Part shown: piece by piece, positions 19,029-22,581 of the stretch | How the letters are laid out: each line of letters opens with the position of its first letter | Position numbering within the stretch: the first letter of the stretch is position 1 | DNA from: Escherichia phage vB_EcoM_ECO78 | DNA: 64,000 nt | Strand: one strand, 5' to 3' | Sequence record: PP526941.1 | Notes under the pieces: generated by a model | Told to the model about the DNA's origin: nothing | Database searches by the model: none | What the model saw: only the letters and a program-made list of their open reading frames with translations | Program-made: the position numbers and the translations under genes

Positions 19029-20042
19029 TCATTTATAATAACTTCGGTGGTTTTCAAGATAGACCTTCTCAAGGAAGTCATCCCAAAAACCCATGTCCAC
19101 TTTTTGCTGCATACCGTTCTTAGAAGCTTCAGTAGATGCTGCTTCTACTTGATCGACCACATCTTCCAAAAACTCTTGAACGGTTTTAAATGGATGTTTA
19201 CCTAACTTCACGTCGAGAATAAATGGAGCGTCTTGAAGTGGATAAACCAAGTCACCAGTTTTGTAAATTTCCAATAGTTGAAGTCCACCACGACAAGCAT
19301 GGCTCAGAGCTTTCCAGTCAATGCCTTCATTGGCTTCGGCCTTACGAGCACGTTCGCCATATTCAGCATCTAATTTGTTCAGTGACTGCTTAAGCTCAAT
19401 AAGAGAAAGCGTTGTCTGATATTTACGACCCAACACTGTGTAAAACGTTTGTGGGCCTGTTTTCTCATGATTATGGAACACCCATTCACAGAATTCGTTT
19501 TCTGGAAGACGATGCTTAATATCTTCAACTTTAGTGCGACGCTGCTTAATAGAACCATCTTCTTGGTAATCAACCCATTGCTCAGGGATTTGATTAACTA
19601 CTTTCAATACATCACGTAATGCAGCCAAACGAGAACCCTTGACACCATATTTAGAGGCTTGTTTACGAACATACCCTAAATAGGATTTCATATTAGTTGT
19701 ATAGAAACGAGATCGGTTGTCTTGAATAAACTTCCACACATCAGGCAAATCAGATTTAACCACTAGTTCAGGTGGAGTGTGAAGCATATCTAATGCTACA
19801 GTTTCACCATCTGCTGCTAATTTAAAGAAATACTTAAGACTGTATAGTTCATGGTCAATATCATCTTTAGTGTTTTTAGATGATGTATTGTTAGTGTTTT
19901 TACTCATATGCTCTTTAACATTTCCGATAAGAATATCGCGAGCAGGAGGAACAAAGATTTCTTTAAAATCTACATCAGATTCTGGAGTAGAAGTTCCATA
20001 AAGATGACTACCAAAATAGCTTTTCATTACTGTTTTCATCAT
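19029..20042 (-). CDS. Nucleotidyltransferase-fold protein (Pol-beta superfamily-like), 337 aa
   Basis: N-terminal motif YFGSHLYGTSTPESDVDF (GS ... D.D signature); ATGA overlap with upstream gene. Confidence 0.7.
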   Translation of the reverse strand: MMKTVMKSYFGSHLYGTSTPESDVDFKEIFVPPARDILIGNVKEHMSKNTNNTSSKNTKDDIDHELYSLKYFFKLAADGETVALDMLHTPPELVVKSDLPDVWKFIQDNRSRFYTTNMKSYLGYVRKQASKYGVKGSRLAALRDVLKVVNQIPEQWVDYQEDGSIKQRRTKVEDIKHRLPENEFCEWVFHNHEKTGPQTFYTVLGRKYQTTLSLIELKQSLNKLDAEYGERARKAEANEGIDWKALSHACRGGLQLLEIYKTGDLVYPLQDAPFILDVKLGKHPFKTVQEFLEDVVDQVEAASTEASKNGMQQKVDMGFWDDFLEKVYLENHRSYYK

Positions 20043-20500
20043 TCAGCCTTATATTCAATAACAGGACATACTTTAGCTTTACGCGCTTTTAAAAATTCGA
20101 CGATAATAGATTTCTTGGGTTGAATAGGAGGTAAACCTTTATACGCCCTATCAATATTTTCTACATGTAAAGCATAATCCTTTTTCCATTTATAATCTTT
20201 ATATTTTTCATGCAGTTGTGTAGGAATAACAAATGAACCGATAATAAGTAAAACAAGAAAAATGGCAAGTATAAATGCTGATGGAATAAGAGTCCATAAA
20301 CTACCAAAAATAAGCCATTTCTGCATGATTTCTGCACAGATAATAGTTAGACCTGCGAGTATAGTACATCCGAAAAAAGAAACGAAAAATGTAGGGATAA
20401 CAATAGACCAAAAATATGCACACAGTGTCTTAGGTCGTTTCCATTCATCATTAAACAGTTTGAATAATTTATAGTGCCAAGAGTTTTCATTAATAATCAT
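20039..20500 (-). CDS. Integral membrane protein (153 aa)
   Basis: Two or more long hydrophobic segments. Confidence 0.6.
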   Translation of the reverse strand: MIINENSWHYKLFKLFNDEWKRPKTLCAYFWSIVIPTFFVSFFGCTILAGLTIICAEIMQKWLIFGSLWTLIPSAFILAIFLVLLIIGSFVIPTQLHEKYKDYKWKKDYALHVENIDRAYKGLPPIQPKKSIIVEFLKARKAKVCPVIEYKAE

Positions 20501-20502
20501 AA

Positions 20503-21024
20503 TTATCCTTTCATTGAAGGCGTAACGGTTGTTAAATATTTAATCATAGCTTCAGCTTCTGATTTCGATAATGAAATTTCTCCATTGTTTTGACGAATAG
20601 AAATAAAATCCGGATGACGGTCACCACCAGCTTTTAAAACACACATATAAGTATCAGTTTCACCTTCAATATTTGAAATGATTGAAGCAGTTCCACATGA
20701 ATGTGGTTTTTGATAAATCAATGCAGCTTTTCTTCCACCGTTTGACTGTTCATAAACTTTTAACACATCAAACAAATCGCTTCTTTTATCAATAGCTAAA
20801 ATGTTATTTTCATCTTCAATATTAAATCCTTCGGATACTTCATAAAGCGTTACCCATAAATCGCCAATGTCAATAACAGCATTTACTTTTCCATGACTTT
20901 CAAGAGCATTACAAATTTTCTTAATTTCATCATAACTCATTTTAATAATATCATCTCCTTGAATAAGGAAGATGTCATTTTTAAATTCAACACGAATTAA
21001 ACCACTTCCACTTGAAATAAACAT
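20503..21024 (-). CDS. Hypothetical protein (173 aa), paralog of next gene
   Basis: C-terminal motif SKSEAEAMIKYLTTVTPSM shared with 21031-21588 (TKDEAIALKTYLDSVIPTM). Confidence 0.6.
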   Translation of the reverse strand: MFISSGSGLIRVEFKNDIFLIQGDDIIKMSYDEIKKICNALESHGKVNAVIDIGDLWVTLYEVSEGFNIEDENNILAIDKRSDLFDVLKVYEQSNGGRKAALIYQKPHSCGTASIISNIEGETDTYMCVLKAGGDRHPDFISIRQNNGEISLSKSEAEAMIKYLTTVTPSMKG

Positions 21025-21030
21025 ATTTCC

Positions 21031-21588
21031 TCACTTTGAAATCATAGTTGGAATGACAGAATCAAGATAAGTCTTTAGCGCAATAGCTTCGTCTTTGGTA
21101 AATGTGACAATATGCGATCGAAAATCATCAATTTGACGAATAGTTAAGACATCTCCATCTTCATAACATTTTGATACGTTTAAAACAGTTTCATCATTCT
21201 GATTGCAAGCGTTAGTAATAATAGCATTGCAATTTTTAAACCATTTTAAACTATGTTTTCTTTCATTAGAATAATAAAAATATTTAATCTTATCTATAAA
21301 ACTGTCCCAATGAATAACTGATAGGCATATTGACTCGCTTTCAATATTAAATCCTGGGCATGAAGAATAAAAATGAATTTTATGCTCATCATTAATGCTT
21401 ACAATTTTATCAGTATAAGGATTTTCAATTTGGGTTAAATGAATGATTTCACTAGGCGTAAAATACATCATATCATCTTCTTGCGTCAAACGATACATAT
21501 TATTTACTTTTTCTATAGCTAATTCACCAAAAAGTAAACTAACTTCTAATACTAATCGTTTCATATTGATTCTCTTCGACTCACTCAC
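21031..21588 (-). CDS. Hypothetical protein (185 aa), paralog of previous gene
   Basis: GTG start with SD AAGGAG 9 nt upstream (ATG alternative at 21564); shared C-terminal motif. Confidence 0.55.
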   Translation of the reverse strand: MSESKRINMKRLVLEVSLLFGELAIEKVNNMYRLTQEDDMMYFTPSEIIHLTQIENPYTDKIVSINDEHKIHFYSSCPGFNIESESICLSVIHWDSFIDKIKYFYYSNERKHSLKWFKNCNAIITNACNQNDETVLNVSKCYEDGDVLTIRQIDDFRSHIVTFTKDEAIALKTYLDSVIPTMISK

Positions 21589-21723
21589 AATTACATACTC
21601 CTTTGAATAATATCAATAATGTTGTTCACCAAATTATAAGTAAACATTGGGTAATTATATTGAATCATCACATACACAACAAACAAAACTTTCATTCTCT
21701 TCTCCTTGGCAGTTGACAAGATT

Positions 21724-21753
21724 ACTATACCATAACCTTGCCAACTTGTAAAC
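21724..21753 (-). promoter_or_regulatory. Early promoter
   Basis: Minus strand GTTTAC - 18 nt - TATAGT. Confidence 0.6.
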
Positions 21754-21755
21754 CA

Positions 21756-21929
21756 TTAAATGACGTTTTCAATAAAATTCTGAAGCTTTGTGTGAGCATC
21801 AACCATGATTTTCATTTCTTCCTTTGCGAAAGCTGTACCTCTTTCTCGAGCAGAATACTCATAGTCAGAAACTGCATTAGCATATTCTTCAATTAGCTTC
21901 ATTAAAAACATCTGCTTTTCAGTTTTCAT
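21756..21929 (-). CDS. Possible small ORF (57 aa)
   Basis: ATG at 21929; not in ORF track; overlaps end of upstream ORF. Confidence 0.3.
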   Translation of the reverse strand: MKTEKQMFLMKLIEEYANAVSDYEYSARERGTAFAKEEMKIMVDAHTKLQNFIENVI

Positions 21930-22113
21930 TATTCCACCTAATCATTTCAAGATATTGAACTAACTTAGCTTTGGATTTATCCAAATCTCTTTTAGCTGCT
22001 TCTATACCGTCGTATGAATATCCTTCACAATGCTCAACTGCTAATTGATATGAATCTATTTCAATATCACGTGCTAATTTAATGATTTTTTCAAACTGTT
22101 CACGTGTTAGCAT
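21919..22113 (-). CDS. Hypothetical protein (64 aa)
   Basis: ORF. Confidence 0.5.
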   Translation of the reverse strand: MLTREQFEKIIKLARDIEIDSYQLAVEHCEGYSYDGIEAAKRDLDKSKAKLVQYLEMIRWNNEN

Positions 22114-22115
22114 AC

Positions 22116-22334
22116 TTAAACTCTCGTATTATGATCGATAATTTCATCAAGAAACATATCTAACGCTTCTACAGCATTATCAACTTTAGCTTCAAGTTCT
22201 TCAATACCTGATAAGGCAAAGTTAATTCGTTCCTCATCTGCTTTACGAATTAAAGCTACCAATTCCTTAATTTTATCAGCTTGTTCGATACTAATCATTA
22301 TTCCACCACATATGAAAGAGAGAATATTGCACAC
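22116..22334 (-). CDS. Hypothetical protein (72 aa)
   Basis: ORF. Confidence 0.5.
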
Positions 22335-22554: not shown

Positions 22555-22576
22555 AAAAAAGTCTCCCGAAGGAGAC
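22555..22576 (-). terminator. Rho-independent terminator (GUCUCC-UUCG-GGAGAC + U6)
   Basis: Hairpin plus U6 on minus transcript immediately after ORF 22582-22968. Confidence 0.7.
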
Positions 22577-22581
22577 TAATG

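Follow-up and report, generated by a model that had tools for sequence, protein, structure and literature searches.

Two adjacent genes of Escherichia phage vB_EcoM_ECO78 (sequence record PP526941.1) end in related sequences, and the question raised by this locus is whether their relationship is confined to these ends or extends over the complete genes, how old the two copies are and which role may be assigned to their products. We analyzed both genes, here named A and B, and their surroundings within a window of 64,000 nucleotides, which is the whole stretch of DNA considered in this study.

Gene content of the locus and family membership

The 2-kb stretch around A and B was matched by 502 phage records; many T4-like genomes of Tequatrovirus, e.g. 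ECP2301, ime09 and BW-1, shared 97-98% identity with it. The two genes themselves shared 97-99% identity with hundreds of deposited T4-like genomes. On the minus strand the order was tk, rI.1, rI, rI.-1, mobD.5, mobD.4, mobD.3, mobD.2a, mobD.2, B, A, a gene for a 153-aa membrane protein, nrdC.11 and nrdC.10. This agrees with an earlier note on the sequence, which had placed the pair in an accessory block between a gene of the nucleotidyltransferase fold (nrdC.11) and rI. It corresponds to the orthologous Tevenvirinae slot between mobD.2 and nrdC.11, downstream of rI, as found in T4, ime09, T6, RB27 and others. The individual features were as follows (positions in the window):

21724..21752, minus strand: putative promoter upstream of mobD.2, obtained by a consensus scan (GTTTACA, 17 nt spacer, TG-n-TATAGT)
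21591..21695, minus strand: mobD.2, 34-aa product of Y05J type, followed directly by B (T4 annotation)
21031..21588, minus strand: gene B, intact ORF, orthologue of T4 mobD.1 (Y05I), named mobD.1a in ime09
GTG 21588 or ATG 21564, minus strand: alternative starts of gene B, giving 185 aa or 177 aa (ORF list and comparison with T4)
21259..21564, minus strand: N-terminal domain of B, residues 1-102 from the ATG, Pfam stretch 4-100, two beta-beta-beta-beta-alpha repeats predicted
21034..21258, minus strand: C-terminal domain of B, residues 103-177, Pfam stretch 105-174, five strands and one helix predicted
21043..21099, minus strand: motif TKDEAIALKTYLDSVIPTM of B, helix and tail of the C-terminal domain, exact translation
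20503..21024, minus strand: gene A, 173 aa, intact ORF, the second paralogue, named mobD.1 in ime09 and RB32ORF097c elsewhere
20731..21024, minus strand: N-terminal domain of A, residues 1-98, Pfam stretch 2-95, two beta-beta-beta-beta-alpha repeats predicted
20506..20730, minus strand: C-terminal domain of A, residues 99-173, Pfam stretch 102-171
20512..20568, minus strand: motif SKSEAEAMIKYLTTVTPSM of A, helix and tail of the C-terminal domain, exact translation and family alignment
20039..20500, minus strand: gene for the 153-aa membrane protein, RB69ORF104c/RB32ORF096c type, phrog_944 (E=1e-49), starting 2 nt past the stop of A
19029..20042, minus strand: nrdC.11, RlaP-type nucleotidyltransferase gene (Pfam RlaP, E=2.5e-11; phrog_388; synteny)

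The start of nrdC.11 overlapped the stop of the membrane-protein gene, and in related loci the position of mobD.2 was occupied by Pfam Phage_T4_Y05J. Both minus-strand ORFs were recovered with the lengths of 173 and 185 aa given previously, the latter presuming the GTG at 21588. Many GenBank records start B at the ATG at 21564 (177 aa). The upstream GTG is favored by three features: it lies 2 nt past the stop of mobD.2, it is preceded by GGAG, and the codons following it, SE(S/A)KR (here SESKR), are conserved in frame with the MMSEAKR of T4. The 185-aa form of B is therefore plausible.

Both proteins carried the same two Pfam domains. The domain T4_y05I_N (PF24449, gathering score 24.9 bits) was matched by A with 120 bits (E=7e-35) and by B with 127.4 bits (E=3.6e-37), and the domain T4_y05I_C (PF24448, gathering score 27 bits) with 83.5 bits (E=1.3e-23) and 74.1 bits (E=1.1e-20), respectively. 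Both matched PHROG 1502 (phrog_1502) as well, with E=4e-67 for A and E=5e-80 for B. The pair thus belongs to a family that is already catalogued (PF24449/PF24448, PHROG 1502), so that its detection was correct but ordinary. An HMM scan of all ORFs in the 64-kb window revealed no further member.

The closest known system is that of T4. Its MobD.1 (UniProt Y05I_BPT4) shared 84% identity, both domains and the place after mobD.2 with B. Gene A resembled it in two-domain architecture and length but represents a separate old lineage, with 27-32% identity to any B-type copy. T4 itself is without A: between its nrdC.11 and mobD.1 lies the HNH homing endonuclease gene mobD, which replaces both A and the membrane-protein gene. 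The GenBank record of T6 annotates A with "similar to mobD.1; RB32ORF097c" and carries the remark "replaces mobD" for the membrane gene; the paralogy of A and B was hence already known. In the literature we found no functional study on y05I, MobD.1 or nrdC.11.

Full-length homology of A and B and the age of the duplication

In this Tequatrovirus genome, A and B represent a tandem pair of full-length paralogues that belong to the MobD.1 (Y05I) family of T4. BLASTP aligned the proteins over 171 columns with E=2e-10, 29% of the positions being identical and 49% positive. The Smith-Waterman score of 109 was well above the background of 2000 shuffles (mean 31.2, sd 5.4, max 68), corresponding to z=14.3; pairwise alignment against such a background was the check that the earlier note had proposed. 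The similarity was distributed over the complete proteins, with z=8.2 for the N-terminal halves and z=7.7 for the C-terminal halves, and in none of the parts compared did any of the 2000 shuffles equal the observed score. Alignment restricted to the final 25 residues (z=7.0) and the exact translation of both quoted motifs bear out the claim of related C-terminal ends. The accompanying description of "otherwise diverged bodies" was too strong, since the homology covers both domains and z was still 9.9 when the last 25 residues were removed. Chance or convergent resemblance of the motif was ruled out as well: both domains scored far above the shuffles and passed the Pfam gathering thresholds.

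The duplication that gave rise to the pair is old. Identity of A to the B-type copies was 27-32% throughout, whereas B shared 31-52% identity with B-type sequences belonging to other alleles and other genera. Neighbour-joining placed the A clade, including a T2-type A of 56% identity, outside all B-type sequences, among them the copies of Dhakavirus and Gaprivervirus. In the codon alignment A and B shared 48.5% of their nucleotides over the whole length and 52% over the final 25 codons, which rules out gene conversion as the source of the common motif; the motif has consequently been kept at the protein level. Taken together, the distance of A from all B-type copies, the closer relationship of B to those of other genera and the low DNA identity in the absence of conversion argue against a recent event. 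Of the local duplication proposed earlier, the adjacency of two paralogues stands, but not a recent origin.

Copies of A with at least 90% identity were present in about 433 phage records. A B-type copy of some kind was found in 728 records, and 721 records covered at least 80% of B, all allele types counted. In comparison, mobD with at least 95% identity occurred in 47 records, and the T4 arrangement, where mobD is found instead of A and the membrane gene, is thus the minority (47 versus about 433 records). The B locus was strongly dimorphic within one genus: phage RB27 carried an allele, B', with only 49% identity to B next to an A copy with 95% identity.

It could be argued that one of the copies is a redundant, decaying duplicate (an incipient pseudogene), or that the motif merely reflects chance or convergence. 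The lack of A in T4, the fragmentation of both copies in the RefSeq record of T2 and the truncated family fragments present in databases would fit such decay. On the other hand both ORFs were intact in the window and are widespread among the records counted above, and the dN/dS values obtained with close orthologues were 0.06-0.16 in the case of A and 0.09-0.29 in that of B. Purifying selection acts on either copy, and both are functional genes. We regard decay or chance as highly improbable in general, and for the window it is excluded by the shuffle tests together with dN/dS.

The C-terminal domain and the membrane-protein gene

The motif described in the earlier note is the signature of the C-terminal domain, where it forms a single helix with a short tail, and represents the most conserved part of the family. 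When full-length and stand-alone members were aligned together, the E, Y and L of the motif were invariant and the P nearly so; among the full-length members only, K, E, A, Y and L were invariant.

A profile search of 1.84 billion representative proteins resulted in 29 hits, which were restricted to Tevenvirinae. At least one of these, the 1572-aa repeat protein P0070, was rejected as a spurious low-complexity match. About 13 of the hits were stand-alone C-domain proteins of 65-87 aa, all terminating in ...(T/S)KxEAxALxxYLNSVIP(T/S)MK, and a few others were full-length relatives. In addition, a DNA pattern search for related loci returned 10 IMG/VR loci. Stand-alone T4_y05I_C proteins (phrog_7763 / phrog_10804) are exemplified by gp119 of Yersinia phage fHe-Yen9-01 and by the gene upstream of gp102 in Serratia phage CHI14. 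They share the C-terminal domain, its ...TKxEAxALxxYLNSVIPTMK ending and the slot directly upstream of the membrane-protein gene, but in contrast to A and B they lack the N-terminal double-repeat domain. Often they occur as tandem pairs of single-domain genes, where the window has a pair of two-domain genes; such tandem C-domain pairs recur in other lineages with 78 aa + 76 aa and with 63 aa + 74 aa. A natural hybrid, P0011, consists of the N-domain of B and the C-domain of A joined at the common 'ET'; on three independent contigs it takes over the position of the two genes. Judged from these sequences, the N- and C-domains are modular.

The membrane protein next to A (phrog_944) contains two long hydrophobic segments and was found in 848 phage records. 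A gene bearing the y05I_C domain was located directly upstream of the membrane-protein gene in every locus examined, with a gap of -13 to +10 nt, and was either full length or of the stand-alone form of about 75 aa, depending on the locus. The loci comprised those of Tequatrovirus (the window, ime09, BW-1, T6, RB27, phiD1 and PYps55T) as well as IME341 (Dhakavirus), SP18 (Gaprivervirus), fHe-Yen9-01 (Tegunavirus), CHI14 (Winklervirus), a Jiaodavirus Klebsiella phage and several IMG/VR contigs. In a 162-kb phage (L014) the series of Y05J, a small gene, Phage_tudor, the y05I_C gene and the membrane gene was duplicated as a unit. Throughout the Tevenvirinae loci sampled, the C-domain gene is thus coupled to the gene of the membrane protein. 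The sole exception to the pairing is T4, where B was kept after mobD had displaced A and the membrane gene; because T4 retains B in this situation, B cannot strictly depend on the membrane protein.

Upstream of mobD.2 the best site of the consensus scan, with 10/12 matches and an extended TG, was found at 21724-21752, although the total of the scan was no higher than that of shuffled sequence. T4 has the same promoter-like element in the corresponding position. The site is likely an early promoter for mobD.2, B, A, the membrane-protein gene and nrdC.11, and it is from this upstream site of T4-early type and its conservation in T4 that we infer early expression. The T4 fragment from nrdC.11 to mobD.3 is lost in viable genome-reduced T4 mutants (PMC9825161). 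Given this viability, the natural lack of A in T4 and the broken copies in the T2 record, A and B are considered dispensable.

In general, conserved adjacency inside one virus subfamily can reflect inherited gene order and not functional coupling.

One explanation that makes use of inherited order holds that A and B are soluble and act, independently of the membrane protein, by inhibiting a protein of the host or of a defence system or by serving as a decoy for it; the adjacency would merely be inherited, and the paralogues and divergent alleles would be the outcome of an arms race directed at different targets. Small, acidic, probably early and dispensable proteins in a variable accessory block would suit this role, as would the dimorphic B locus of RB27 beside its well-conserved A, the retention of B in T4 and the tiny, Tevenvirinae-restricted set of homologues. 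However, searches with PADLOC and the NCBIfam defence and anti-defence models gave no matches for A, B or their neighbours, and selection among close orthologues was purifying, not diversifying. The explanation also leaves the constant adjacency of C-domain gene and membrane gene and their joint duplication in L014 unaccounted for. We consider it a possible but fairly unlikely alternative.

Predicted fold, charge and putative role

AlphaFold2 models of A and B had a mean pLDDT of 73 and 80, respectively. For A the N-domain was predicted with a pLDDT of 85-94 and the C-domain with low confidence (46-64), and for B the corresponding values were about 90 and 61-80. According to DSSP the N-domain of both models consists of four strands and a helix, repeated twice, and the C-domain of five strands and a helix, the latter at modest confidence. 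In B the elements of the N-domain were E3-9 E13-20 E23-28 E31-35 H37-45 E53-56 E62-65 E72-75 E80-83 H86-100. Both proteins would therefore contain three repeats of the beta-beta-beta-beta-alpha type in series, with five strands in repeat III at modest confidence. Repeats I and III weakly resembled each other (P=0.0016, with reciprocal secondary HMM matches).

Such an arrangement of three consecutive units of beta-sheet and helix is known from Pur-alpha (PURA; PDB 8cht, 8chw, 3k44, 5fgo) and the PC4-like fold class. In a Foldseek search of the PDB the B model was superposed on Pur-alpha repeat III (5fgo) with probability 1.0, TM 0.68-0.71 and rmsd 2.9 A over 63 columns at E ~0.09, and on repeats I-II (3k44_B) with probability 0.96 and TM 0.37. 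For B no meaningful fold reached a significant E-value and all Pur-alpha matches had E >0.02, and for A neither a match at E<0.05 nor any PUR match was found in the PDB. Matches in BFVD were solely family members and uncharacterised phage proteins.

Other structural matches were rejected. These were sliding-clamp and polo-box matches of the A model (TM <0.2, non-significant, a generic sheet-plus-helix resemblance) and Ctf4, Pob3 and sliding-clamp matches of the B model (TM 0.18, rmsd >15 A). A match of the B model to hydroquinone dioxygenase (probability 0.98, TM 0.33) would suggest an N-domain similar to the vicinal-oxygen-chelate fold, but no conserved set resembling metal ligands stood out among the invariant residues.

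At the sequence level the relationship to Pur-alpha was weak. PDB sequence searches with A, B and the C-domain profile gave unrelated proteins at best (E 0.63-1.7). The human PURA query sequence matched PDB 8cht at full confidence across the entire 152-residue aligned stretch, with E=7e-97. Pfam PurA was matched neither by the full proteins at E<=1 nor by 17 C-domains at E<=10, and the same applied to PC4 and Whirly. Weak similarity was obtained when the C-domain profile was aligned by hhalign with human and fly PUR repeats (score 18.3-19.7, P=0.003-0.005), a score reached by none of 150 column-shuffled controls. This alignment was in the structurally equivalent register, placing 'VTFTKDEAIALKTYL' opposite 'LTLSMSVAVEFRDYL'. 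For the N-domain, comparison with PUR repeats I-II by hhalign revealed no similarity (P=0.67). The resemblance to Pur-alpha, as far as the models indicate, is weak and appears confined to the third repeat. The phage proteins further differ from Pur-alpha in their shorter repeats (about 100 aa versus about 150 aa for the N-domain), in the five strands predicted for repeat III and in being acidic, not basic.

All 23 of the 23 full-length members were acidic, with a pI of 4.5-5.8 and a net charge of -3 to -13. The net charge of the N-domains was -7 to -8, and acidity was likewise found in nearly all of the stand-alone C-domains. Conserved positions were found in turns rich in Q, E and D ('LTQEDD', 'GFNIExE', 'IRQxDD') and in hydrophobic helix residues. 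The invariant residues were Q, D, E, K, Y, L, A and T and not basic or aromatic residues of the sheets; only three lysines (K89, K99, K154, numbering of A) and two tyrosines (Y61, Y163) represent conserved basic and aromatic residues. A basic or aromatic surface for nucleic-acid binding was not found in the sequences of the 23 full-length members.

These data bear on the proposal that A and B are single-stranded nucleic-acid binders of the PC4/Pur-alpha type, with repeats I and II pairing intramolecularly and repeat III intermolecularly, and act as regulators of transcription or RNA, in line with the Pfam name "putative transcription factor". Three predicted units of four to five strands and a helix in both paralogues, the Foldseek matches of B, the hhalign score of the C-domain beyond all 150 shuffles and the weak mutual resemblance of repeats I and III speak in its favor. 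A simple unit of four strands and a helix may arise convergently, though, and the proposal has to be set against the lacking similarity of the N-domain to PUR repeats I-II, the A model without a PDB match at E<0.05, the Pur-alpha matches of B above E 0.02 and the failure of Pfam PurA, PC4, Whirly and PDB sequence searches. Moreover, if the Pfam label is taken to mean DNA binding, the uniform acidity and the non-basic conserved positions argue against it. Binding of nucleic acids by A and B is thus unlikely in our opinion.

We tentatively prefer a different reading, which we hold to be quite possible without regarding it as probable. A and B would be early-expressed, dispensable, acidic and cytoplasmic accessory proteins, whose C-terminal half-domain of beta-sheet and helix most likely serves as a module for dimerization and partner docking. 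It would most likely work together with the co-transcribed membrane protein. Homo- or heterodimers of A and B could be formed, and the N-terminal double repeat may be an added, faster-diverging domain that confers specificity. Both proteins would most likely act by contacting other proteins, so as to contribute at the membrane to takeover of the host, to exclusion or to counter-defence, and most likely not as DNA-binding transcription factors. The idea of dimerization derives solely from the third repeat, which bears a weak likeness to Pur-alpha repeat III (E ~0.09; C-domain pLDDT 46-80).

A more far-reaching version starts from Pur-alpha as the sole protein reported to have both an intramolecular and an intermolecular PC4-like domain (review, PMC7549692). 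The MobD.1 family would then be a phage counterpart of this architecture, with an intramolecular double repeat and a third half-domain that needs another chain as partner. The A+B pair as well as the pairs of 78+76 aa and 63+74 aa would be obligate heterodimers, and the ...YLNSVIPTM helix and tail would dock onto the co-transcribed membrane protein with its two segments. We consider this version improbable. If true, it would reveal a previously unrecognised three-component early membrane module across Tevenvirinae.

The pair of paralogues in itself adds little, as the family is contained in Pfam and PHROGs, near-identical genes are present in hundreds of genomes and the paralogy is annotated in T6. 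The analysis does indicate that the Pfam label "putative transcription factor" is weakly supported, the proteins being acidic and the third repeat alone weakly PUR-like. The coupling of the C-domain gene to the membrane-protein gene, finally, provides a testable handle on the T4 early block that comprises mobD.1, the membrane gene of RB69ORF104c type and nrdC.11.

Variation of the tandem MobD.1-family genes

The two tandem paralogues are here named A (173 aa) and B (the orthologue of T4 mobD.1). Related loci contained a natural hybrid, P0011, in which the N-domain of B is fused to the C-domain of A. The junction is the 'ET' common to both. A single ORF of 179 aa is present in place of A and B and adjoins the membrane-protein gene on its upstream side. 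It likely originated from a deletion or an unequal crossover between the tandem paralogues. P0011 was found at three loci:

L007 4001-4540, P0011
L008 4001-4540, P0011
L009 1306-1845, P0011

Within Tequatrovirus the B locus was dimorphic. RB27 and many others carried an allele, here referred to as B', which is approximately 49% identical to B (L011 952-1494 compared with window 21031-21564). The A gene next to B' in RB27 was 95% identical to that of the window, and the A/B' junction is a sharp mosaic boundary between the two paralogues. In the T2 RefSeq record NC_054931 (L006 1940-3019) both family genes were split into short ORFs of 44, 97 and 57 aa and others, and in a second T2 record B was matched in three pieces. 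This could reflect true pseudogenisation or sequencing frameshifts.

Compared with T4, the 5' end of B had gained an in-frame insertion of 12 nt (window 21564-21588 versus L003 6829), corresponding to four codons inside the run 'AGAATCAATATGAAACGA'. The insertion resembles an incomplete second copy of the neighbouring 'AAACGA'. It gives rise to an internal ATG, which many annotations take as the start (177 versus 185 aa).

Neighbouring genes and the duplicated cassette

Three tandem paralogues matching Pfam DUF7438 (E=7e-13 to 3e-17) were located on the minus strand at window 21756-22319, and a hairpin with a perfect 7-bp GC-rich stem was found further upstream:

within 21756-22319, minus strand, mobD.2a, 57 aa, Pfam DUF7438
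within 21756-22319, minus strand, mobD.3, 64 aa, Pfam DUF7438
within 21756-22319, minus strand, mobD.4, 67 aa, Pfam DUF7438
22560-22577, both strands, hairpin AGTCTCC-CGAA-GGAGACT between rI.-1 and mobD.5

The DUF7438 genes are probably the 'first paralogous pair' implied by the earlier note; additional copies were present close to tk in related contigs. On the minus strand a run of T comes after the hairpin, which is a predicted terminator-like element between the rI and mobD.5 units.

In at least six Tevenvirinae genera the gene of the two-segment membrane protein (phrog_944, RB69ORF104c type) always had a gene with a y05I_C domain directly 5' of it (window 20039-20500, L004, L005 and L014-L029). 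Two cytoplasmic motifs were kept in this protein, 'SWH..., RPxxLCxYFW' and 'PPKKSIIVEFxxARKxKxCPxIxY'. At L014 2902-6987 (OQ927978.1) an entire cassette, in the order Y05J (MobD.2-like), small protein, Phage_tudor, y05I_C and membrane protein, was present in two tandem copies, the first of which contained two neighbouring C-domain genes of 78 and 76 aa.

Annotation of the block and a possible relative

In the GenBank/RefSeq records matched, product names across the mobD/nrdC block are errors that have been propagated. A number of mobD.x genes, B included, were labelled 'molybdopterin-guanine dinucleotide biosynthesis protein MobD' through a mix-up with the gene name. Furthermore, nrdC.10 and nrdC.11 were named 'thioredoxin', a T2 fragment 'prohead core scaffold protein' and one copy of A 'putative SSB protein'.

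Weak sub-threshold matches to Pfam DUF7189 (E=2.5e-4 and 4e-3) were obtained with residues 16-41 of A and with 5 of 17 C-domain sequences. They fall on the strand-turn-strand-helix portion of repeats I and III. DUF7189 may represent a further single-repeat relative of the MobD.1 family.
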